A stretch of 64,000 nucleotides of DNA from Eledone cirrhosa (taxonomy: Eukaryota): positions 1 through 64,000 of the forward strand of contig CAXHJY010000344.1 of the NCBI GenBank assembly GCA_964016885.1. The letters are read 5' to 3'. A program made the translations under genes and the position numbers. Numbering within the stretch: the first letter of the stretch is position 1; each line of letters starts with the position of its first letter. The notes under the pieces were generated by a model that did not search any database, was not told the origin of the DNA, and saw only the letters and a program-made list of their open reading frames with translations. Below, piece after piece: positions 1,421 through 46,820 of the stretch.

Positions 1421-2842
1421 TATAGTCGCGCAATGAAATTGGCGACCCTCGGAAGTTAAGAACACCTTTGCCTATCCTATGTTTACTTTCTCATAGCTAC
1501 TCTAGCAAATTTAGATTTGTACAATAAAATACTGATGTTATAACTGACATTTTTCTTTTTTCCCATTTTATTATTATGGGGAGAAAAAGAGATTTGAGTC
1601 CTACTAAACGGGCACGAATCGTCGAGTTGAGAAGTTGAATTTTTCCTTCCGCGTGATTTCTAAGATGACAACATGCAGCTCCACTGCTTGTATTCAAGCC
1701 TGGCGCGCTTGGGAACGTACAGGATCATACAAATCGAAGCCAAAACCAGGACCAAGTCGAAAAACGGACGATCGCCAGGATAGAGCGATTGGCCGGTCAT
1801 CAGAAAATAACAGAAAAAAGACTGCTGTCGAGATCTGCTCTGAAGTGAACACTTCCTACAACTCGGATATCTCAGTCAGAACTGTCCGTCGTCGTCTGCG
1901 CGAAATCGGACTCAATGGTCGCATCGCCAGACGTGTTCCGCTCATCTCACTCGCCAACCGTCGCAAACGACTTGCATTCGCATACAAATATCTCGCATGG
2001 ACACCCGCTGATTGGCGCAAAGTCCTATTTCAGATGAAAGTCTATTCACCATGGTCGGATCAGATGGCAAGACTTATGTCAGAAGGAGAACACGCGAGGA
2101 ATTCGATGATCGGTGTTCTCAAAAACGGTGAAACATGGTGGAAAATCGATCATGTTCTGGGGTGCATTTTCGGCTATGGGCACCGGTCCCCTTGTTCCCA
2201 TTTCCGGCAGTATGAACCAGAAAACTTATGTCAAGATCCTGGAAGACCATTTGGAGCCCTATGTTGATGAAAATATGCCTTTAAATTGGCAATTTGTGCA
2301 AGACAATGCCCTGTGTCATTCTGCAAAGTCGGTTAAGCAATTTTTTCATGAGAAAAAATGGAAGGTCATCGATTGGCCTCCTCAATCGCCAGACTTAAAT
2401 TGTATAGAAAACCTGTGGCATTTAATAAAGCGCGAAATTCGACATCAAACCCAAAAAACTTTCACGATCTGATGGCCACCATCAACCTGACATGGAACAA
2501 CTTCAGTTTGGACCAATGCATGAAATTAGTGGAAAGTATGCCTAGAAGATGTACTGCCGTGATCAAACAGAAAGGATATGCACCAAATATTGATTTCGAC
2601 CATAATTCGAGCATTAAATGAAATAAAATAAAAGTGTTCTTACTACCATGTCCGCCAAAATGTGGCTATAATTGCGTTAAAGAGTCATAAGAACTGGCCT
2701 ATTTGACTAATTGGCTTAATAACAGAGATAGCGATAGAGAAATTATTTCTCTTTCTTTAGGTATATTGCAAAGTTGCAGAACGAAATATCAAAAAAGTTA
2801 CATGCAAAATAAAAAGTGTTCTTACTTCCATGTCCTCCACTG
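1421..2842 (+). mobile_element. Tc1-family DNA transposon
   Basis: The right end (aaaaagtgttcttacttccatgtcctccactg, 2811-2842) is followed by TA. An inner direct repeat of it lies at 2630-2657. A degenerate inverted match (ggaagttaagaacac) lies at 1451-1465. The element encloses a Tc1 transposase. The left boundary is approximate. Confidence 0.85.
1576..2593 (+). pseudogene. Tc1 DD34E transposase, frameshifted as assembled
   Basis: Starts MGRKRDLS (ATG 1576). Contains the HTH motif SVRTVRRRL, WRKVLF(S)DES, TVKHGG..IMFWG, QDNA-x34-E (WPPQSPDLNCIENLW) and ends KGY(A)TKY*. Five -1 frameshifts; about 340 aa when repaired. Confidence 0.92.
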
Positions 2843-3660
2843 TATATACTAATATATATATATATATACTAAATATATATATATATATATATACTAAATA
2901 TATATATATATATATATACTAAATATATATATATATATATACTAAATATATATATATATATATATACTAAATATATATATATATATATATACTAAATATA
3001 TATATATATATATATATACTAAATATATATATATATATATATATACTAAATATATATATATATACTAAATATATATATATATATATATACTAAATATATA
3101 TATATATATATATACTAAATATATATATATATATATATACTAAATATATATATATATATATATACTAAATATATATATATATATATACTAAATATATATA
3201 TATATACTAAATATATATATATATACTAAATATATATATATATATACTAAATATATATATATATATACTAAATATATATATATATACTAAATATATATAT
3301 ATATATATACTAAACATATATATATATACTAAACATATATATATATATATACTAAATATATATATATATACTAAATATATATATATATATATACTAAATA
3401 TATATATATATATATACTAAATATATATATATATACTAAATATAATATATATATATATACTAAATATATATATATATATACTAAATATATATATATATAT
3501 ATATACTAAATATATATATATATATATATATATACTAAATATATATATATATATATATACTAAATATATATATATATATATACTAAATATATATATATAC
3601 TAAATATATATATATACTAAATATATATATATACTAAATATATATATATACTAAATATAC

Positions 3661-3751: not shown

Positions 3752-6700
3752 TCATCATCATCATCATCATTTTACGTCCGCTTTTCCCTGCTTGCAAGGG
3801 TGGGACGAGTCTTATTCAGCACAGCATCTCTCCACTCGTCACGGTCCCTCGTCATCTCCACCGTGAGCTTCAATGATCTGAGGTCTGTTCTCACCACCAC
3901 CGCCCATGTTTTTCGTGGTCTACCTCTACCACGTCTTCCTTCAACTGGCATTTCCTGGCACTTCTTCACCCATCGGTCATCCTCCATGCGCATCACATGT
4001 CCATACCACCTCAGTCTCCTCTCCCGTACACTACATTCTATCCCTCTCAGACAGTTTCTCTCTCAACACATTTATGCTGGGTCGTTCACGCACATTTACA
4101 CTGCACATCCAACGGAGCATGCTTGCCTCATTTCTCTCCAGCCGTCGCATATCTTCTGCGGTAGCTGCCCATGTCTCACTACCATGCAGCATCGCGCTCC
4201 TCACACAGGCATCATACAACCGGCCTTTCGTACGCAGGGAGAAACCCTTCTTCGTCAACAGAGGAAGCAGCTCCCTAAACTTCTTCCAACCCGTCCTTAT
4301 TCTAGATACTATGGCCTCGGAACACCCTCCTCCCATGCTAATCTGATCTCCTAGGTACCGGAAGCTATCCACCACTTCTATAGCGCCCTCTCGCATTTGA
4401 AAAATGTGTCTATCAGTGCGACTTCTACTGTCTAATTTCCCTGTACATCTACTGCATACATAGTTCTCCCTACCTGTTAGTTTGCCTGCTATCCCGCTAC
4501 ATCTCTTGTGTACCCAGGACCTACATTGTGTGCATTTTATAGAATTTATGCCAGTTCCTTTTCTGCATATCGAACATGGCCATTTCCCTGACGGAATCAG
4601 GGTTTTGTCCTCTTTTCTACTCATCAACACTTTTGTCTTAGCTAGATTTACTCTCAGTCCTCTTGCTTCCAACTGCTGTTTCCATAGCCGGAATTTATTC
4701 TCTAGCTCCTCTACTGATTCTGCCATAAGAGCCAGATCGTCAGCATAGAGAAGTTCCCATGGACAGCCAGTCTTAAACTCCTCTGTTATGGCTTGGAGGA
4801 CTATAATGAACAAGAGCGGGCTGAGGACCGATCCCTGATGTACTCCTACTTGTATCTGGAATTCCTCACTAAACTCCATTCCTACCCTGACTTTACTGAG
4901 AGTACCTCTGTACAAAGTTTGCACTGTCCTTACAAGCCATTCCTCAACACCCAGCTTCCTTAGGGACCACCAGATGACAGATCGGGGTACCCTATCAAAG
5001 GCCTTCTCTAGGTCAACAAAGGCTAAGTATAGTGGCTTATTCTTCTCTAAGAACCTCTCTTGCATTTGTCTCACCAAGAAGAGGGCATCTGTTGTACTCT
5101 TCCCAGGCACAAAACCAAACTGCATCTCATCTAGTTTGACCCTTTCTCTAATTAGTTGTGCTAAAATCCTTTCTGCCACTTTCATAACCTGATCTATCAG
5201 TTTTATACCCCTATAATTGCTCCTCTCCAAAGCATCCCCTTTACCTTTGTAGCAATTTATGAGAATACTGCTGCACCAGTCTTTGGGTATGACACCACCA
5301 TATATAGCCTGATTGATTATGCGTGCAACCAGTTTAGTGCCTACGTCCCCTGATGCCTTCAGCATCTCAGCAACTATTCCCGATGGTCCGGCCGCCTTAC
5401 CATTTTTCATTTCCCTAATCGCCTCTTGGACCCTATATTCGTCAATCTCAATAGCTGGTCCCTCTGTCGGATCTACCAAGGGTAATTTCTCTCTCTCCCA
5501 TTCGTTCTCCACATTCATCAGTCTCTCATAATGACATTTCCAGGCCTCCTTTTTCTGGTCATTCGTGACACTAAGTACACCGGCATCATCCCGGACACAT
5601 TTATCACCAACAACATCCTGATTTGCATTGACACACTGCCTTGCAATGTGGAACACCGCACGCCTCTGATCTTCCCGTCGCAGAACATTGGCAAACCTCC
5701 TACTCTCTGCCTCCCTGCGTGCTAAGTACACCTGACGTCTAGCTTCTCTCTTAGTGGCTGTATATTCTTCCCTACTCCCACCCTTATTCCAAGCCTTCCA
5801 TGCTAGTCTTTTGTCTCTAATAGCCTTATCTACACTGCTGTTCCACCACCAGGTCACTCTCTGTCTGGTTGGAGCTCTGCTCCAGCCACAGGTTTCATCA
5901 GTAGCCTTTAGCAAGTTGTCACGTAAGAACTTCCAGTTATTATCTATGTCATACGTCTCTAAATCGTCTTCTTTTTAGGCTTTCCTAAATTTGAATTTTA
6001 GTGAAAGGTCTTTTAGCTTCCAGACCTTTCTTCTCCACACCTTCCTATATGTCTCATTCCATCTCTTGCTTACTGAGATATCACTAACAACTAACCTATG
6101 CTGTGGGGTACATTCTTCCCCAGGGTATGCCTTGGTATTAGACACTATCTGCCTGTCCCGCTGCCTAACTAGCAGGAAGTCAATCTGGCTTATGTGCTCA
6201 CCAGATTTGTAGGTTATTAGGTGATTGGCAGGTTTCTGGAAGTTTGTGTTGCAAATAGTCAATGTACTTGCATCACAAAATTCAAGAAGTCTCACTCCTT
6301 CTTCATTTCTTGAACCGTAACCGTGCCCACCATGTACCCCAGTGTAACCATCCTGGAGCTGTCCAACATGACCATTGAAGTCTCCTGCTAGCATAACGAT
6401 GTCTCCGTCCTCTGTCATTGTGGTTGTTTGCAAAAGTTGCTCATAAAAGCAGTCTTTCTCATCTTTGCCTAGGCCTGCTTGGGGAGCATAGACCGAGATG
6501 ATTGTCAGTAGTCTCCTACCTACAACTAATCTAAGCTTAATTATTCGATTACTAACTCGAACTACCTCTATTGTCTTATTGATCCATTTCTCAGCCAGGA
6601 AAATGCCTACTCCCCCTAACCCATCATCCTTACCTACCCAGAATAGCTTATAGCTAAGACGCTTGCCTACGACTAGTCTCGCAGAGGCACCCCTCCATCT

Positions 6701-7010
6701 CACCTCTTGCACGCAGCACACATCCACCTGCCTTCTCTCCAGCATCTCCGCTATTTCAGCAGACCTACCTCTGAGAGTGCCAACATTAAGTGTTGCAACT
6801 CTGAGATGCGACGTCTTCATATTTTCTATGCTGTTTTGTTGCTGTGCTGATAAGCTTTTTGGCGTTGATACACTGGTTGGATGCCCTTCCTAACACCAGC
6901 GCCACTTTACAGCATGGACTGGGTGCTTTTATTTGTGCCACCAGCACTAGAGAGGATGTCTTACTAGACTCAAGGGCCCTCTCTACCCCTCCGTTTTACA
7001 GCATCGTCAT

Positions 7011-7015
<5 letters not shown>
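3752..7015 (-). mobile_element. Near full-length RTE-clade LINE
   Basis: Single APE+RT reading frame, 5' UTR at about 6821-7015, and a (GAT)n 3' tail at 3752-3770. Inserted into the TA/CTAAA satellite. Confidence 0.95.
3772..6820 (-). pseudogene. RTE ORF: AP endonuclease + reverse transcriptase with PHD-like insert
   Basis: APE motifs TLNVGTL, CVQEVRW, SVYAPQ, GDFNGH, IDFLLV. RT motifs NYRGIKL, FVDLEKAFD, GVHQGSVLSPLLF, LLYADDL, FRYLG. C-terminus RLRWYGHVMRM...GRRGRGRPRKTW. One in-frame TAA at 5975-5977 and one frameshift near 4050. Confidence 0.93.
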
Positions 7016-7045
<30 letters not shown>

Positions 7046-7137
7046 CTAAATATATATATATACTAAATATATACTAAATATATATATATATACTAAATAT
7101 ATACTATATATATATATATATATATATACTAAATATA

Positions 7138-7181
<44 letters not shown>

Positions 7182-7224
7182 GGAAAGAAGGTTTACATGG
7201 TTTGCTATACAAAAAAGTTTTTAA

Positions 7225-7343
7225 TCACATAGCTTACATTTGTTTCACTGAACTGGTATGTCTAGAGATCGCTATTCGCTTAATTTTGCGTTACTCGATC
7301 GCCAATACAGAATTATAACCAGTCAGATCTTCGGAGCATGCGA
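7225..7343 (-). ncRNA. Type I hammerhead-like ribozyme, CCGAAGA core, long stem II
   Basis: Inverted copy of the 7970-8063 motif with 25 extra nt in the stem II extension. Confidence 0.6.
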
Positions 7344-7969
7344 GAATGAAGAAAATACACAGGCAAGAAAAGAAAAGAAAATACAGGCTACTATATGAAG
7401 TAGTAATGGCATTCAATTAGAACAATAACAACAATTACAACAATGCTATCAATAAACTATTTAAGGAGACCCTGACATTACTTAGGTGGGTGGTATATAA
7501 TGTATCTAATGTTACGGCGTGTAAAACTAGCTGTCATAAGGCAAAATGAAGCGTTGGCATGTACAAAGTATCGTAGTGTATATCAATTTTAAATTATAAA
7601 GATAAGCTAGTTTTTACAGTCTTTCTCTTCATCTTCAACAGTATACATGAGTGGGACCACTGTCAAAGCTAAATAGTTGTTGAGTTAATACAGAGGTTAA
7701 CCAATTAATATACGCATATATTTACGCACACACACATACACATATATATATATACACATATATACACATGCATGTGTACATAGACACATACATACACATC
7801 AATATACGCTCGTACAAAAATATACATACATGCAAAGAGAGGGTCTCCTTAAATAGTTTATTGATAGCATTGTTGTAATTGTTGTTATTGTTCTAATTGA
7901 ATGCCATTACTACTTCATATAGTAGCCTGTATTTTCTTTTCTTTTCTTGCCTGTGTATTTTCTTCATTC

Positions 7970-8063
7970 TCGCATGCTCCGAAGATCTGACTGGTAACGC
8001 AAAATTAAGCGGATAGCGATCTCTAGACATACCAGTTCAGTGAAACAAATGTAAGCTATGTGA
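7970..8063 (+). ncRNA. Type I hammerhead-like ribozyme, CCGAAGA core, long stem II
   Basis: Stem I tcgcatgct/agctatgtga. Core CCGAAGA at 7979-7985. Stem II ctgactggt/accagttcag. GAAA at 8042-8045. Stem III AC-aaat-GT. GUA site at 8053. Confidence 0.62.
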
Positions 8064-8282
8064 TTAAAAACTTTTTTGTATAGCAAACCATGTAAACCTT
8101 CTTTCCTGATTTATTATTACTCCAAGTGTTTACAACATAGGAATTACGGCATACCCGCAGCATCACTATGAAAACGCCTTGTTGAGTCAAACCAAGCCAA
8201 GCGTTAATATCATCCACTACCTGGAATACCATAACTGGACTTCACCTAAGTGGACTGCATTTAACTATTATTTGTTAATCCG

Positions 8283-9025
8283 TATATATATATATACTAA
8301 ATATATATATATATACTAAATATATACTATATATATATATATATACTAAATATATACTATATATATATATATATACTAAATATATACTATATATATATAT
8401 ATATACTAAATATATACTATATATATATATATATATACTAAATATATATATACTAAATATATACTATATATATATATATATACTAAATATATATATACTA
8501 AATATATACTATATATATATATATATACTAAATATATACTATATATATATATATATATACTAAATATATATATACTAAATATATACTATATATATATATA
8601 TATACTAAATATATACTATATATATATATATATACTAAATATATACTATATATATATATATATATATACTAAATATATACTATATATATATATATATATA
8701 TACTAAATATATACTATATATATATATATATACTAAATATATACTATATATATATATATATACTAAATATATACTATATATATATATATATATATATACT
8801 AAATATATACTATATATATATATATATACTAAATATATACTATATATATATATATATATACTAAATATATACTATATATATATATATATATACTAAATAT
8901 ATACTATATATATATATATATATATACTAAATATATACTATATATATATATATATACTAAATATATACTATATATATATATATACTAAATATATACTATA
9001 TATATATATATATATACTAAATATA

Positions 9026-9056
<31 letters not shown>
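8283..9056. repeat. (TA)n/CTAAA satellite
   Basis: Units of ctaaatatatactatata(ta)n. Confidence 0.95.
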
Positions 9057-9059
<3 letters not shown>

Positions 9060-9256
9060 TTAAGGATACTATTTATGGTTATGTATATACTAAAACCTTT
9101 TATAGTTATATATATATTAAACCCTAAATAGTGAAAGACAGTAATTTATTACTACCTTATTACCATTAAGATAAATAGCTCAATGTAATAACATCAGTTG
9201 TTCTACAGAGCAGTTATATAGAAAGGAAGTCAAGTATGTAATCAATCATTGAAAAA

Positions 9257-9305
9257 TTGCTTCGAAGACTCCAAACCTCGGCTTGGAAGAAACAATTGTA
9301 AGCGA
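9257..9305 (+). ncRNA. Type I hammerhead-like ribozyme, TCGAAGA core
   Basis: Stem I ttgct/agcga. TCGAAGA at 9262-9268. Stem II tccaa/ttgga. GAAA at 9289-9292. Palindromic ACAATTGT. GUA site at 9300, followed by AATAAA. Confidence 0.55.
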
Positions 9306-9363
9306 ATAAATGGTTTAAACAGAACTTTGATTCATGTAATTTCTATAATTTCTATATATATAC

Positions 9364-9398
<35 letters not shown>

Positions 9399-10067
9399 CT
9401 TTCTATCTACTTACTCTTTCAAATTTTGTGTTCTATGTCAAACCTTCATTTTCTATATTGATGTTTTTATTCAATGCTAACTCATAACATCCAGTAATGA
9501 TTTCATAGAAAATATCTAATAACAGGTTTGTTAAGTCAAATCTTTATAGAACCCTTACTGATGTACAGATAGATCACTGTGAAAATGTACAGTATTAGAA
9601 TAAATAATAATATTTTAATGTAATTCAGTCATAGTTTTTTATTTTGTACTTTTCAACATTGTCTTGCTAATGTGGTATCATGTTATACAGAATGTTAAGT
9701 GGTAAACAGCTAGCCTGTACATTGGAAGTCTCAGAAAATACCATATATACTAGAATAATAGTTGATCTCATGTAAAATTTGACCGCCTTTTTATGGCTAT
9801 AAAATATGGAATTTACCATAGACTTCATATAAAAGTCATGTTTCACAGATAACAGGTTAACATTTATCAAGATATCATTCTGTACATAAAAATAACACTG
9901 TTACAAAATCGTCTTGAATTTAAGACAACTTTATATTATTACAAATATATATCTGAAACTAAAAATATACCGAAACAGTTCGATGGATATGTGTAAAAGA
10001 ACAAGTGTAAGTATTTATAAGAGCTACGTGGTTTTAGCCATGTGTTTTGATGCATAGAAATTGGTAA

Positions 10068-10260
10068 TAATTGTTTCTACTTTTGGCACAAGGCCAGCAA
10101 TTATCTCAGTACATTACTGGTACTTTATTTTATCGACTCCGTAAGGATGAAAGGCAAAGTTAACCTCGGCGGGATTTGAACTCAGATCATAAAGGGCAGT
10201 AACTCTTTGCTGCTAAGCATGGTGTCTGACTTTCTACCGATACTGCCAATCCCCTGCCCT
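10068..10260 (-). mobile_element. tRNA-derived SINE family A
   Basis: A box TGGCAGTATCGG, B box GAGTTCAAATCC, body gcctttcatccttacggggtcgataaaataaagtaccag, tail agtagaaacaat. About 25 full or partial copies occur in the window. Confidence 0.85.
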
Positions 10261-12954
10261 TGGGAATTGGTAATAATACTGTAATTCATTGTGTTTTTGT
10301 TTTTATCTGTTTAGAGATCAATTGAGCTTCTGCTTTTGATTCTACTTTGAATTTCAAGCCCCTAAAAGGTAGTATCCATGTATTAGTCGACCCCATAAAT
10401 TTAACCTTAAAAAATAGTCTAAAATTTCGACTTCTACAGGAATATATACAGTATATCTATATATTAAAAATCTAAATGCAATGCTGACATATGGCAGCAA
10501 AGGCCTGTGTATTAAAGTATCTTATAACTTTACATCAACAGCAAGAACTAGATAAATAGATGCAGTACTCTTTTTACTCTTTACTGGTTTAGTCAGACTG
10601 CAGCCTTGCTGGGGCACTGCCATGATTTAGTCAATCATATTGGCCCCATTATTTTTTTCTGGTCCATATTTTATCGATCCTCTTTTGTTGAATCGCTAAG
10701 TTATGGAGCACACACACAGAGGCTTCTGCAGTTTCCATGTATCAAATTCCACTCAGAAAGCATTGGCCAACCCTAAGTTATAGAAGATACTTGTTCAAGA
10801 TGCTGCACAGCAAGATTGTACCCAGGACCACATGATTGCAAAATGAACTCTTTAACCACACAGTCACAGCTATGCCAGTAGCAATGTTCATTACATGGCA
10901 AATTAGCCAAGAATTTGATGATTGTTTCCCAAACTTCAACTTTAACACCTCCATTCTCCGAGGAGATCCATTATAGGCATGTGTGGCGGTGGGTGGGGGT
11001 AGGAGGCAATTAAAGAACAATAACTAGGTAAGGTGATTAATAACCTATTCACACACAGAAAAAAGGAAGTACCTTGATTATTAGTTGACATATTGTGTCT
11101 ATTCTGAAGAAAAGGCCTTGAGGGAGGAATTACAAAATTACAGAGCCAAATTCTTTCTTTCTAGTTGATGAAGTGTCATATCAAAATATCCCTATTTATG
11201 TCTTGGGGGCTCTATCAACAGGATTTGGTCATAACCTTTTAACCCTTTCCTTAACATATTTCTAATGACATACACGTATTGGAATTAATTAAAGAATTTC
11301 AAGGGATTTACTTAAATTATTATTTCATTAAGATAGTATTAGACATATAAAACTTTTTTTTATAATAAATGATGTTAAAAGGTTTTAATTTAAACAGGAA
11401 GCCTTTATTCTATTTTTTTTTTTTTTTTTTTTTTTTTCATAGAAAAAGGAGCAGTTTTGAGGCAGGTTGGTCTCAAAAGATTTTAAAGGAAATCTCTAGA
11501 AGATAACAGATTTTGGCAGAGTTCAGAATTGTAATTGAGATGGAATTTTGAAAATGAGAAAGCCATTTTATTGTTGCCAAGAGGAAAATCCCATTTCTAA
11601 ATTGATAATTGAAATGTTCATTTTGACATATTCTCACATTACATAGCTTAATTTTTAGTTATGAGATTTAGTAATTAGCAAGAAATGAAGTATTGGGGTT
11701 AGTGGGGTAGGGATAACATTTGAACCAGCAATCTTAGATTTCTTAATCAGTGTCTCCTTGAAGATTATGTTGATTGTTCTTCGTCTTGAAAAGAAGGTGA
11801 TAAAATACTTATTACTAATATTATGGAATATTAAACCAAATAAACAAGAATATGTCTGTCTAATTAATTAAAGTTAATTAAAAGTGTTGATAAATACAAG
11901 ATACAAGATTTAACCATTCCGTTACCATATTTCTAATGAAAGACACTGCCTACTATCTTCAAATAATTTTGGAAATAATCAAGAATTTGTCATGATTTAT
12001 AAACATAGCTAACGTTCTCATTATTAAGTTGATGTTTGGAACTTACAGGATCTTACATAAAATTATGACAGATGGAACTTGCCAGATCAGACCCAAGAAA
12101 TAATGTTTCCAATTTCTGATACTATCTACTGGTCACAACTCCCGACAGAATAGCAACATGAAATAAAATGTCTTGCTCAAAGACACATCGCCCAGCCCAG
12201 GAATCGAACTTACAACCTCACAATTGTGAATCCAACTCTCTATCCACTAAGCTACATGCCTTCAGTTTTACATCGTTGAACCAGGGGTGGTTTAGTATCA
12301 AAAAGATTAACACTTAACAAGCTAAAAAATAGAATTTCTAACTCAAATGTTTCCATCCTATTATGGATTTTACATAGTTTTTCTTGGGCGGGGTGGTTGA
12401 AATATATCTATATAAGTGCATTGACAGGAGAGAATGTGACATCTAACCAACAAACCTGACACCTAGCTCTAACTAGGTGAACCATTTCATTAACATTTCA
12501 TTCACTCATTTACATTATCATCAGCAGCAGCAACATCATTATTATTTTACATAAAAATACTTGTCAAAAATATTGTTAAGAGCAGAACAGATAACATCAA
12601 CTATGTTATTTATAATTCAGAGAAACTATGGTTGATAAATGAGTCCATCTGTAACAGTTAAGTGGAATTAAGATGGCATGCTAGCTGGACCTGAAAGACC
12701 AGTGAGCTGAATTTAGTAGTATTAATGTTCGTGAGGAGAAGAGATGTTGTTGTTTGTGCTGTTTCACTTATCTGATGACAACATTGACTGATGTTGTTGT
12801 TGACGTTGTAGTTATTGTTGCTATTGTTTTCAACCACAATGCACTGAAAGGTGAAAATGAACAAGCCACACCCTCCTCCAAACCACACCCTCTTCCAAAC
12901 CACACCCTTCCTGTAGACTCTTATTCAACATATGCCAATAGCTATTCCATATGA

Positions 12955-39402: not shown

Positions 39403-42400
39403 GGTTTTGTTGTTGTTGCAGCTGCTGTGGCTGTCGTTGTTGTTGTTGTTGTTGTTGCAGTTGCTGTGGCTGTCGTTGTTGTTGCAGTTGCTGTGGCAGT
39501 CGTTGTTGTTGTTGCAGTTGCTGTGGCTGTCGTTGTTGTTGTTGTTGCCTGTGGCTGTCGTTATTGTTGTTGTTGCAGCTGCTGTGGCTGTCGTTGTTGT
39601 TGTTGTTGCAGTTGCTGTGGCTGTCGTTGTTGTTGCAGTTGCTGTGGCAGTCGTTGTTGTTGTTGCAGTTGCTGTGGCTGTCGTTGTTGTTGTTGTTGCC
39701 TGTGGCTGTCGTTATTGTTGTTGTTGCAGCTGCTGTGGCTGTCGTTGTTGTTGTTGTTGCAGTTGCTGTGGCTGTCGTTATTGTTGTTGTTGCAGTTGCT
39801 GTGGCTGTCGTTGTTGTTGCAGTTGCTGTGGCAGTCGTTGTTGTTGTTGCAGTTGCTGTGGCTGTCGTTGTTGTTGTTGTTGCCTGTGGCTGTCGTTGTT
39901 GTTGTTGTTGCAGTTGCTGTGGCTGTTGTTGTTGCAGTTGCTGTGGCTGTCGTTGTTGTTGTTGCAGTTGCTGTGGCTGTCGTTGTTGTTGTTGTTGCCT
40001 GTGGCTGTCGTTGTTGTTGTTGTTGCAGCTGCTGTGGCTGTCGTTGTTGTTGTTGTTGCAGTTGCTGTGGCTGTTGTTGTTGCAGTTGCTGTGGCTGTCG
40101 TTATTGTTGTTGTTGCAGTTGCTGTGGCTGTCGTTATTGTTGTTGTTGCAGTTGCTGTGGCAGTCGTTGTTGTTGTTGCAGTTGCTGTGGCTGTCGTTGT
40201 TGTTGTTGTTGCAGTTGCTGTGGCTGTCGTTATTGTTGTTGTTGCAGTTGCTGTGGCTGTCGTTGTTGTTGCAGTTGCTGTGGCTGTCGTTGTTGTTGTT
40301 GTTGCAGTTGCTGTGGCAGTCGTTGTTGTTGTTGCAGTTGCTGTGGCTGTCGTTGTTGTTGTTGTTGCCTGTGGCTGTCGTTGTTGTTGTTGTTGCAGTT
40401 GCTGTGGCTGTTGTTGTTGCAGTTGCTGTGGCAGTCGTTGTTGTTGTTGCAGTTGCTGTGGCTGTCGTTGTTGTTGTTGTTGCCTGTGGCTGTCGTTGTT
40501 GTTGTTGTTGCAGCTGCTGTGGCTGTCGTTGTTGTTGTTGTTGCAGTTGCTGTGGCTGTTGTTGTTGCAGTTGCTGTGGCTGTCGTTATTGTTGTTGTTG
40601 CAGTTGCTGTGGCTGTCGTTATTGTTGTTGTTGCAGTTGCTGTGGCAGTCGTTGTTGTTGTTGCAGTTGCTGTGGCTGTCGTTATTGTTGTTGTTGGAGT
40701 TGCTGTGGCTGTCGTTATTGTTGTTGTTGCAGTTGCTGTGGCTGTCGTTGTTGTTGTTGTTGCAGTTGCTGTGGCTGTCGTTATTGTTGTTGTTGGAGTT
40801 GCTGTGGCTGTCGTTGTTGTTGTTGTTGCAGTTGCTGTGGCTGTCGTTATTGTTGTTGTTGCAGTTGCTGTGGCTGTCGTTATTGTTGTTGTTGCAGTTG
40901 CTGTGGCCGTCGTTATTGTTGTTGTTGCAGTTGCTGTGGCTGTTGTTGTTGCAGTTGCTGTGGCCGTCGTTATTGTTGTTGTTGCAGTTGCTGTGGCTGT
41001 CGTTATTGTTGTTGTTGCAGTTGCTGTGGCTGTCGTTGTTGTTGTTGTTGCAGTTGCTGTGGCTGTCGTTATTGTTGTTGTTGCAGTTGCTGTGGCTGTC
41101 GTTATTGTTGTTGTTGCAGTTGCTGTGGCTGTTGTTGTTGCAGTTGCTGTGGCCGTCGTTATTGTTGTTGTTGCAGTTGCTGTGGCTGTTGTTGTTGCAG
41201 TTGCTGTGGCCGTCGTTATTGTTGTTGTTGCAGTTGCTGTGGCTGTCGTTATTGTTGTTGTTGCAGTTGCTGTGGCTATCGTTGTTGTTGTTGTTGTTGC
41301 TGTGGCTGTCGTTATTGTTGTTGTTGCAGTTGCTGTGGCTGTCGTTATTGTTGTTGTTGCAGTTGCTGTGGCTGTTGTTGTTGCAGTTGCTGTGGCCGTC
41401 GTTATTGTTGTTGTTGCAGTTGCTGTGGCTGTCGTTATTGTTGTTGTTGCAGTTGCTGTGGCTATCGTTGTTGTTGTTGTTGTTGCTGTGGCTGTCGTTA
41501 TTGTTGTTGTTGCAGTTGCTGTGGCTGTCGTTATTGTTGTTGTTGCAGTTGCTGTGGCTGTCGTTATTGTTGTTGTTGCAGTTGCTGTGGCTGTCGTTAT
41601 TGTTGTTGTTGCAGTTGCTGTGGCTGTTGTTGTTGCAGTTGCTGTGGCCGTCGTTATTGTTGTTGTTGCAGTTGCTGTGGCTGTTGTTGTTGCAGTTGCT
41701 GTGGCCGTCGTTATTGTTGTTGTTGCAGTTGCTGTGGCTGTCGTTATTGTTGTTGTTGCAGTTGCTGTGGCTGTTGTTGTTGCAGTTGCTGTGGCCGTCG
41801 TTATTGTTGTTGTTGCAGTTGCTGTGGCTGTCGTTATTGTTGTTGTTGCAGTTGCTGTGGCTGTTGTTGTTGCAGTTGCTGTGGCCGTCGTTATTGTTGT
41901 TGTTGCAGTTGCTGTGGCTGTCGTTATTGTTGTTGTTGCAGTTGCTGTGGCTGTCGTTATTGTTGTTGTTGCAGTTGCTGTGGCTGTCGTTATTGTTGTT
42001 GTTGCAGTTGCTGTGGCTGTCGTTATTGTTGTTGTTGCAGTTGCTGTGGCTATCGTTGTTGTTGTTGTTGTTGCTGTGGCTGTCGTTATTGTTGTTGTTG
42101 CAGTTGCTGTGGCTGTCGTTATTGTTGTTGTTGCAGTTGCTGTGGCTGTTGTTGTTGCAGTTGCTGTGGCCGTCGTTATTGTTGTTGTTGCAGTTGCTGT
42201 CGTTGTTGTTGTTGCAGTTGCTGTGGCCGTCGTTATTGTTGTTGTTGCAGTTGCTGTGGCTGTCGTTATTGTTGTTGTTGCAGTTGCTGTGGCTGTTGTT
42301 GTTGCAGTTGCTGTGGCCGTCGTTATTGTTGTTGTTGCAGTTGCTGTGGCTGTCGTTATTGTTGTTGTTGCAGTTGCTGTGGCTGTCGTTATTGTTGTTG

Positions 42401-43985
42401 TTGCAGTTGCTGTGGCTGTCGTTGTTGTTGTTGTTGCAGTTGCTGTGGCTGTCGTTGTTGTTGTTGTTGCAGCTGCTGTGGCTATCGTTGTTGTTGTTGT
42501 TGTTGTTGCTGTGGCTGTCGTTGTTGTTGTTGTTGCAGTTGCTGTGGCTATCGTTGTTGTTGTTGTTGGAGTTGCTGTGGCTGTCGTTATTGTTGTTGTT
42601 GCAGTTGCTGTGGCTGTTGTTGTTGCAGTTGCTGTGGCCGTCGTTATTGTTGTTGTTGCAGTTGCTGTGGCTGTCGTTATTGTTGTTGTTGCAGTTGCTG
42701 TGGCTGTCGTTGTTGTTGTTGTTGCAGCTGCTGTGGCTATCGTTGTTGTTGTTGTTGTTGTTGCTGTGGCTGTCGTTGTTGTTGTTGTTGCAGTTGCTGT
42801 GGCTGTTGTTGTTGCAGCTGCTGCAGCTGTCGTTGTTGTTGTAGCTGCCTGTGGATGTCGTTGTTGTTGTTGTTGCAGTTGCTGCAGCTGTCGTTGTTGT
42901 TGTTGTTGTTGCAGGTGCTGTGGCTGTCGTTGTTGTTGTTGTTGCAGTTGCTGTGGCTGTCGTTGTTGTTGTTGTTGCAGCTGCTGTGGCTATCGTTGTT
43001 GTTGTTGTTGTTGTTGCTGTGGCTGTCGTTATTGTTGTTGTTGCAGCTGCTGTGGCTGTCGTTGTTGTTGTTGTTGCAGTTGCTGTCGTTGTTGTTGTTG
43101 TTGCAGTTGCTGTGGCTGTCGTTGTTGTTGTTGTTGCAGTTGCTGTCGTTGTTGTTGTTGTTGCCTGTGGCTGTCGTTATTGTTGTTGTTGCAGTTGCTG
43201 TGGCTGTTGTTGTTGCAGCTGTCGTTGTTGTTGCAGTTGCTGTGGCTGTCGTTGTTGTTGTTGTTGCAGCTGCTGTGGCTATCGTTGTTGTTGTTGTTGC
43301 AGCTGCTGTGGCTATCGTTGTTGTTGTTGTTGCTGTGGCTGTTGTTGTTGCAGCTGCTGCAGCTGTCGTTGTTGTTGTTGCAGTTGCTGTGGCTGTCGTT
43401 GTTGTTGTTGTTGCAGCTGCTGTGGCTATCGTTGTTGTTGTTGTTGCAGCTGCTGTGGCTATCGTTGTTGTTGTTGTTGCTGTGGCTGTTGTTGTTGCAG
43501 CTGCTGCAGCTGTCGTTGTTGTTGTTGCAGTTGCTGTGGCTGTCGTTGTTGTTGTTGTTGCAGTTGCTGCAGCTGTCGTCGTTGTTGTTGTTGCAGTTGC
43601 TGTCGTTGTTGTTGTTGTTGCAGTTGCTGTGGCAGTCGTTGTTGTTGTTGCTGTTGCTATCGTTGTTGTTGTTGTTGTTGCAGTTGCTGTCGTTGCTGTT
43701 GTTGTTGCAGTTGCTGTGGCTGTCGTTGTTGTTGTTGCTGTTGCAGTTGCTGTGGCTGTCGTTGTTGCAGTTGCTGTTGCAGTTGCTGTGGCTGTGGCTG
43801 TCGTTGCAGTTGCTGTGGCTATCGTTGTTGTCGTTGTTGTTGCTGTTGCAGCTGTTGCAGCTGTCGTTGTTGTTGCAGTTGCTGTGGCTGTTGTTGTTGT
43901 TGTTGTTGTTGCAGTTGCTGTGGCTATCGTTGTTGTTGTTGTTGTGGTTGTTGTTATTGATGTTGTTGCTGATATTGTTATTGTT
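39403..43985. repeat. 4.6-kb (GTT)n-derived minisatellite, main unit 33 bp
   Basis: gttgcagttgctgtggctgtcgttattgttgtt plus shorter variants. The 1100-1500-aa ORFs are stop-free repeat translations. Confidence 0.95.
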
Positions 43986-46774: not shown

Positions 46775-46820
46775 CTGATGATTTCTAAAGAATGAAACAG
46801 TTCTAGTCCTGTAGAATCTC
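46770..46820 (+). ncRNA. Type I hammerhead-like ribozyme
   Basis: CTGATGA at 46775-46781. Stem II ttct/agaa. GAAA at 46794-46797. Stem III ACAG-ttctagtc-CTGT. GUA site at 46813. The 5' strand of stem I is lost into the T-tract. Confidence 0.55.

Follow-up and report, generated by a model that had tools for sequence, protein, structure and literature searches.

The locus described here bears on the role of hammerhead ribozymes in Penelope-like elements (PLEs). In the window, the whole 64,000-nucleotide stretch of Eledone cirrhosa DNA that was analysed (contig CAXHJY010000344.1, assembly GCA_964016885.1), two hammerhead motifs lie on opposite strands of an inverted repeat, each with C at position 4 of the core (C4) and with an enlarged stem II, and it must be asked what kind of element left them there and whether a motif of this design is still a ribozyme. 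The clade to which the element belongs offers a natural series, with intact young ORFs, sister lineages with C4 or U4, stems III with or without a palindrome, and an extra domain that covaries and contains two invariant motifs. With such a series, direct tests become possible both of cleavage assisted by protein and of what the ribozyme is for.

The locus is one recent insertion of a PLE of the Hydra clade into a (TA)n array, and it comprises the following features (positions in the window):

7163 to 7177, no strand: left copy of the target-site duplication (TSD), a TA repeat with C at its end, 15 bp identical to 8283-8297.
7178 to 7839, minus strand: left 5'-truncated PLE copy, consisting of 3'UTR with an internal microsatellite, hammerhead and plain 3' end (site a); unit positions about 2836-3527.
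7225 to 7343, minus strand: intact type I hammerhead, with stem I at 7343-7335/7234-7225, core CCGAAGA at 7334-7328, GAAA, an 8-nt stem III region and the predicted cut at 7235/7234.
7258 to 7317, minus strand: 60-nt stem II extension of the left hammerhead, with a single-stranded linker, an invariant GUA.GAC element, a helix, an invariant AG/G internal loop and a terminal hairpin.
7474 to 7839, minus strand: upstream 3'UTR of the left copy, earlier noted as a spacer; it matches the minus strand of family copies.
7839 to 7840, no strand: head-to-head junction of the two 5' truncation points, with microhomology of about 1 nt and family sequence past each breakpoint.
7840 to 8282, plus strand: right 5'-truncated PLE copy, unit positions about 3236-3527 followed by the tail.
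7970 to 8063, plus strand: hammerhead with a damaged extension, with core CCGAAGA at 7979-7985, a 25-nt deletion at 7994/7995 and the predicted cut at 8053/8054.
8112 to 8282, plus strand: 171-nt tail, the 5' leader of the element, which stops at site b just short of the ORF region.
8283 to 8297, no strand: right copy of the TSD, 15 bp identical to 7163-7177.
8283 to 9056, no strand: compound (TA)n target microsatellite, whose left continuation is 7041-7177.

The identity of the 15-mers at both ends points to a single insertion event. Apart from a 25-nt indel and a single substitution, the arm at 7178-7473 (296 nt) is the reverse complement of the arm at 7840-8110 (271 nt); 156 nt are 100% complementary and separated by 366 nt. 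The preliminary description had placed these arms around a separate 366-bp spacer; the arms stand, but the spacer dissolves into element sequence, because the left copy directly abuts the right one at 7839/7840 and the right copy extends to 8282. The predicted fold of a read-through RNA pairs 80% of 933 nt in a long duplex, which would sequester the single sense hammerhead; such fold-back, which had earlier been put forward as a potential ADAR or siRNA substrate, is a generic property of many pairs of this kind in the genome. Since the two hammerheads lie on opposite strands, no single transcript carries both in sense, and no dimer can form in cis. The locus copy has no ORF and is, by itself, an unremarkable dead end.

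The nature of the element emerges from a full-length copy elsewhere in the genome (L048), which consists of an inverted partial pLTR, a pLTR, an ORF of 808 codons and a second pLTR; the unit measures 3527 nt. Neither Pfam nor a PDB sequence search returned a match for the 808-aa product (P0001), yet its AlphaFold model (pLDDT 79) finds telomerase reverse transcriptases (RTs) as the best PDB matches in Foldseek (8 of the top 10), and the protein has 73 relatives at about 31-46% identity. The Hydra clade has been defined by RWK, the change of DKG to DKT, a CxCX5C linker, CxxC and CxH around a conserved E and N, a C-terminal endonuclease and (TA)n targets, in the published account of the clade (Craig et al., 2021; PMC8557442). 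P0001 carries RWK, DKT, CxCX5C, and CxxC and CxH around the conserved E and N, together with a C-terminal endonuclease-like region; it is collinear by eye with published Hydra proteins, and all 43 mapped pairs of the family are inserted in TA repeats. A VY...YIG motif at the C-terminus aligns across relatives, and one of 21 aligned proteins gives a weak Pfam GIY-YIG match (E=0.012). The published Hydra element of Octopus bimaculoides shares the terminal motif, in keeping with a cephalopod host. A single ORF with a telomerase-related RT (by fold match, the locus copy having none), partial-tandem pLTRs, an inverted 5'-truncated copy, a one-sided tail and a TSD are all features of PLEs seen in this family. 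On its predicted protein, the element is a Hydra-clade PLE encoding a telomerase-like RT and a putative C-terminal endonuclease, and the earlier suggestion of a recent Penelope-type inverted insertion is borne out by the full-length relative, the Hydra motifs, the telomerase-like fold and the mapping of the locus onto the unit. Assignment to Naiad or Chlamys, with their N-terminal endonuclease, was rejected on account of the C-terminal position of the endonuclease-like region, and so was a non-LTR retrozyme (short non-coding head-to-tail tandems), the copies here being truncated pieces of a coding 3.5-kb unit arranged head to head. Residues 494-544 and 616-665 of P0001 form low-confidence Asn/Arg/Gln-rich inserts that are absent in most relatives and are reminiscent of the Asn-rich inserts described for Penelope ORFs of the rotifer Adineta vaga (Arkhipova et al., 2013; PMC3846280).

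Both arms contain the complete set of hammerhead parts previously listed for them, namely CCGAAGA, a 9-bp bulged stem I, U.U at 10.1/11.1, GAAA and a GUA site, with ACAAAUGU as the stem III region. The U.U pair had been read as a departure from the norm; it is tolerated in hammerheads and is common in those published for the Hydra clade, so that this reading does not hold. The small hairpins that had been named in stem II are recovered in the fold predicted for the long arm. A right-arm search of the 3.0-Gb genome gave 1525 candidates. Of the 40 that were scored, most have the long, 186-nt form; the short, 25-nt-deleted form occurs once genome-wide even with one mismatch allowed, which identifies the right-arm deletion as private damage. 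The difference between the arms falls inside the extension, as had been noted, but to say that it merely spares the core understates it, for this unique deletion takes out the 5' half of both invariant extension motifs. The isolated motif folds no better than shuffled sequences (z -0.77 and -1.27), and structural support must therefore come from covariation and not from energy. An Rfam search of window positions 5000-11000 returned no hammerhead family at E<=1 and only microsatellite-driven miRNA matches below threshold; Rfam also misses five sister loci, three of them with U4. Together with the standard descriptors (CUGA core, short stem II), it misses thousands of hammerheads in one animal genome.

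Whether C4 is a private lesion or a family trait can be read from the genome. Exact 23-mer searches returned 777 copies with CCGAAGA and 3 with CTGAAGA, so that C4, in place of the U expected at position 4 of a type I hammerhead, is the family consensus and not a private mutation, and the contrary case envisaged in the preliminary description, a CTGAAGA consensus, falls away. Looser genome-wide patterns with a long stem II returned 3234 C4 matches (control 3), 1201 U4 matches (narrower pattern, control 2) and 160 G5A matches (control 12). With anchors that leave out the core, hand counts among the first matches listed gave 71 C4 and 26 U4, with 3 G5A, in family C (100 of 513), and 46 C4 and 51 U4, with 7 G5A, in family D (100 of 209). 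Among 30 family D loci (n=29), C or U at position 4 goes together with particular states of other diagnostic bases (best p=4e-6), which indicates that U4 and C4 are lineage states and not only products of CpG decay. Within the same family (L220-L249), C4 goes with C17 in 15/17 copies and U4 with U17 in 11/12, a lineage linkage unseen across other subfamilies; a general coupling between C4 and N17 was accordingly rejected. In family C, 6 of 20 loci from a set ranked by a U4 query have U4, vs TG at 13/116 other CpG sites, and part of the U4 in this family is explicable by CpG decay. Decay as the sole origin of U4 copies holds for the window's subfamily and was rejected for family D and others.

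A motif tree with position 4 masked, for which 177 of the 229 motifs were retained once G5A copies, copies with deletions and distant families had been removed, requires 26 changes at this position, at least 15 of them forced by well-supported branches; many are single tips, attributable to CpG decay, and multi-member U4 clades among C4 ones are also present. C4 occurs in sister families whose proteins are 43-65% identical, and lineages switch between C4 and U4 with the other core bases fixed; on this sequence comparison, C4 would be old in, or recurrent within, the long-stem clade. In a protein tree, 18 host rows fall on one side of a 100/100 branch from 26 metagenomic relatives, a split that comes from a query-anchored alignment and is confounded by the shared host. 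Hammerhead-like matches were found in 47 of 77 loci of these metagenomic relatives, and 45 of them have U4 with 10-25 nt between core and GAAA; the extension is absent from their credible hammerheads, one long match inside an ORF having been judged spurious. One metagenomic Hydra-type element (L342:2159) combines a C4 core with a short ordinary stem II, so C4 can occur without the extension. A sister subfamily, whose 3' half has 1850 exact matches, retains C4 and has A at 11.1, a perfect palindrome and a GUC site. More distant hammerhead families with a different long stem II and the same stem III palindrome were seen at 11 loci (L165, L251, L206, L288, L182, L137, L273, L282, L289, L287 and L269), which include both C4 and U4; L206 adjoins a Hydra-type ORF 43% identical to P0001. 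The U4C hammerhead is reportedly the subject of a 1998 paper by Ambros and Flores. In the published description of a viroid, a U4C hammerhead was weak in vitro and sufficient in vivo (PMC3088659), and CYGANGA cores have been reported from viromes (PMC13481778); there the state is a rare variant or one of RNA viromes, whereas most members of the retrotransposon clade described here, which spans several families, have it, and it alternates with U4 between lineages.

The remainder of the core and the enlarged stem II have been kept across considerable divergence. Eight subfamily consensi, 58-92% identical, retain C3, G5, A6, G8, A9, G12, A13, A14, A15.1 and U16.1, and vary at positions 4, 7 and 17, where N17 is A, C or U and never G. 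The three-way junction, with C3-G8, A15.1-U16.1 and H17, is fixed in the 8 consensi and in 25 loci, and the core-free samples agree. A fixed core with a base other than G at position 17 is the tolerance pattern of an active hammerhead. The stem II region measures 81-83 nt in all eight subfamilies. Over 25 loci taken across the tree, 90.7% of the cells in the proposed helices are paired (27-43% in slid controls), and two-sided changes occur in 13/28 pairs, a figure reached in 4/500 shuffles, with 6/16 extension pairs among them; relatedness is not taken into account in the shuffles, and the same sequences served to draw the structure, so this covariation is strong support, not formal support. 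It nevertheless supports the 60-nt extension as a real extra domain, as had been proposed for stem II. Two near-invariant elements stand out in it. In one, GUA faces GAC, which may be read either as a helix with a bulged A or as a loop-E-like motif; the other is an AG/G internal loop with G-C and U-A as its closing pairs. That their sequence stays constant while the helix around them covaries suggests a site of binding or of tertiary contact. A SECIS-like interpretation was rejected by eye, the helix being too short and the motif lost in three subfamilies. The clan as a whole comprises thousands of copies in the genome with a 60-base extra arm in their predicted fold and, often, the unusual core base.

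Stem III sets the window's own subfamily apart. In 7/8 subfamilies it is the palindrome ACAAUUGU, as expected for dimer-dependent PLE hammerheads on the published model (Cervera and de la Peña, 2014; PMC4209133), and in the window's subfamily it is the non-palindromic sequence given above, with a predicted dimer duplex of -0.7 vs -6.4 kcal/mol for the palindrome. This subfamily is the youngest, with a mean pairwise distance of 0.023, and its monomer stem III is predicted at only about 13% probability; lacking the palindrome and with so weak a monomer stem, it may cleave very poorly.

The head-to-head layout of the locus is the rule in its family. A plain end stands opposite a tailed one in all 43 fully mapped pairs, many of which were selected because they were already pairs (one of the tails is slightly short), and a hand count among the first 100 matches listed gave 21 divergent and 0 convergent pairs within 5 kb. 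For the 35 of 43 pairs that were parsed for TSDs, a duplication of 15-18 bp was found in 6 with an interrupted repeat, most others were uninformative, and about 3 loci with an interruption near the left end show no duplication. Either arm of a pair may exceed one unit length. In 38 of the 43 pairs (4 were skipped and 1 had no comparators), the arms could be compared with those of other pairs; the distance between partners is below that to the median other arm in 38/38, and in 24/38 no other arm is nearer than the partner. In families C and D, the DNA end lies 50-69 nt from the hammerhead in 65/123 copies and 190-249 nt from it in 34, with 13 copies lacking a TA run; 9 of 15 pairs in these families have one plain and one tailed end, 4 are ambiguous and 2 do not fit. 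The mapped loci show no pile-up of 5' truncations at the predicted hammerhead cut site. At three loci (L055, L059 and L045), both arms are truncated at the same unit position with perfect palindromic junctions, two of them at the short stem I palindrome. The rule that a plain end is paired with a tailed one suggests that both DNA ends are primed on a single template, and, since two independent RNAs would also give pairs with the same end, one shared RNA is favoured. Together with TSDs of 15-18 bp, it is a sharp constraint on models of PLE integration.

The reading that we prefer, at a probability of roughly two in three, is that the motif is a slow hammerhead, assisted by dimerization or by protein, which would process tandem transcripts into unit RNAs, and that the extension is a protein-binding or tertiary scaffold which allows C4 to be tolerated. 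In such a scheme, the hammerhead would likely cut and religate unit RNAs from tandem transcripts at a low rate, with the putative scaffold making the weaker C4 core tolerable. The hammerhead of an anole PLE, by the published account, cleaves only with protein (Frangieh et al., 2024; PMC11167929). On the DNA side, the endonuclease would cut both strands of (TA)n with a stagger of about 15 nt. Each 3' end would then start reverse transcription at one of two fixed positions, 58 and 229 nt 3' of the hammerhead cut; the two ends would use different positions, probably on the same tandem or circular RNA, and the two cDNAs would afterwards be joined at their truncated ends. A bolder version, which we put forward tentatively and consider rather unlikely in its entirety, would make these motifs a distinct structural subclass of animal hammerhead (>4000 copies here, missed by Rfam) whose 60-nt domain binds the RT-endonuclease, gates cleavage and lets U4 drift to C, the same ribonucleoprotein using two fixed sites of a single circular RNA to prime both ends of a cut with a 15-nt stagger. 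If true, gated cleavage and priming on one circle would explain the head-to-head, one-tailed architecture of Penelope elements.

Several other explanations bear on the same observations. In the main rival reading, the hammerhead and its extension would be a non-cutting docking or ruler element for the RT-endonuclease, with C4 and the broken palindrome as signs of relaxed catalysis. Such a role would suit the conserved distances between the hammerhead and both DNA ends across divergent families, the fact that every DNA copy spans the cut site, and the loss of the palindrome in the youngest subfamily. It would also suit what has been described in other PLEs, where hammerhead cleavage is dispensable for insertion in vitro of an anole element, mutants of the ribozyme being without effect and no RNA ends mapping to the cut site (Frangieh et al., 2024; PMC11167929), and where Naiad elements thrive without a canonical hammerhead, with "half cores" 35-50 nt apart that are possibly related (PMC8557442). 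A structure that had ceased to cut would not, however, be expected to keep the catalytic G8 and G12 and other core bases fixed, and N17 never G, across subfamilies 58% identical, and we regard it as improbable. Less probable again is a ribozyme that cuts but whose enlarged stem II serves to have the downstream ORF translated without a cap. From the cut in the 5' pLTR it would be about 280 nt to the first ATG (58 nt as far as the unit end and 222 nt beyond), and translation initiation has been described as promoted by type I hammerheads of viral 5'UTRs and by HDV-like ribozymes of retrotransposons (PMC13725137); after the cut, though, the core and the whole extension would be on the upstream fragment, tied to the leader only by stem I.

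It could further be argued that C4 is an inactivating mutation of a master copy, amplified by a recent burst, given that the window's subfamily is very young and uniform and that U4 is found in the metagenomic hammerhead-like matches (45/47) and in all Hydra rows of the published table (PMC8557442). A founder effect of this kind has to contend with C4 in families related at 43-65% protein identity, with its persistence though CpG decay pushes towards U, and with a core that is otherwise undecayed in every C4 lineage; as a single recent event it is already largely refuted, and we give it very little credence. The near-identical arms and the small contig could, lastly, be taken for an assembly or read fold-back artefact, a concern raised from the outset. 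Public contigs and reads aligned to 7800-8290 contain the element family in its long form in other samples, and none of them bridged the junction at 7839/7840. The arms nonetheless differ by a unique deletion and a substitution, the tail is one-sided, the TSD measures 15 bp, the same layout recurs at 42 other loci with 21 divergent and 0 convergent pairs (among the first 100 matches listed), and opposite-strand joints of the element family are present in raw reads of another sample; an artefact is the least credible explanation of all, and the locus can be treated as genuine.

Much of the system has precedent. The Hydra PLEs, as set out in the published text, share the RWK, DKT, CxCX5C and CxxC/CxH motifs, the (TA)n targets, a type I hammerhead close to the 3' end that in many cases has U.U at 10.1/11.1 and a palindrome in stem III, and an inverted 5'-truncated copy with a one-sided tail (Craig et al., 2021; PMC8557442); the VY...YIG motif of P0001 may correspond to their C-terminal GIY-YIG. 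Their published unit is generally <3 kb, vs 3.5 kb here, and their tail 30-40 nt, vs 171 nt here, and all Hydra rows of File S2 of that work give CUGA with a stem II of 3-7 bp and a loop of 3-10 nt, in contrast to C4 and 81 nt from core to GAAA here. The canonical Hydra hammerhead, with CUGA and a short stem II, is thus not the form found in this family; it is a descriptive trait of the clade and not its basis. The minimal, dimeric hammerheads of PLEs have in common with those described here the type I fold, the location in the pLTR, a weak palindromic helix III, a model involving circles, opposite-strand pairs 100-700 bp apart and an expectation of low activity, but their helix II of 6-8 bp, with neither C4 nor a multi-helix extension in the published description, is unlike the one seen here (Cervera and de la Peña, 2014; PMC4209133).

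An experimental parallel is the Poseidon element PAc of Anolis (Frangieh et al., 2024; PMC11167929). Its reverse transcription starts at two internal sites, both downstream of the hammerhead, and these fix the extent of the tail; cutting and extension take place on both strands of the DNA, and the hammerhead is assisted by protein. PAc belongs to another PLE clade, and the published in vitro assays indicate no strand preference for the start sites, whereas the genomic pairs here strictly have one of each (43/43). Head-to-head inverted pLTRs with a tail that is optional on one arm have been described for Penelope in A. vaga, where the TSD is 8-10 bp, vs about 15-18 bp here, and where the authors favoured self-priming on an antisense template and not double-ended priming (Arkhipova et al., 2013; PMC3846280). 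The full texts covered, which further include PMC6765202, PMC13282606, PMC3376415 and bioRxiv 10.64898/2026.07.22.740005, contain in the parts consulted no PLE hammerhead with a covarying 60-nt extension, no PLE clade with a C4 majority and lineage switching, and no strict one-of-each rule; the supplements of Cervera 2014, of Frangieh 2024 and of a 2026 retrozyme preprint, and the PLE hammerhead variants of Lunse et al. 2017, may hold similar cases. The element type, the inverted layout, the tail, the U.U pair and the possibility of C4 are already known; what is new is a structural variant of a known ribozyme and retroelement system, defined by the 60-nt domain, the C4-majority clade and the one-of-each ends.

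The insertion has several neighbours in the window. A LINE on the minus strand (4034-6889) encodes an AP endonuclease and an RT in two frames, with a PHD-finger match inside the RT frame; it shares the compound (TA)n array, and its 5' end faces the PLE insertion. Its 5'UTR (about 6890-7010) resembles RTE leaders with HDV-like ribozymes, and the Rfam search of 5000-11000 returned no match over it. Loose CUGANGA...GAAAC...GUH matches at 46775 (plus strand), 25225 (plus strand) and 4743 (minus strand) are probably due to chance. A fragment of a Tc1/mariner-type transposase (PF01498) lies on the plus strand at 1608-2264, and a 4.6-kb minisatellite occupies 39407-43985, with a 33-bp unit in 144 copies and a stop-free frame of 1571 codons.
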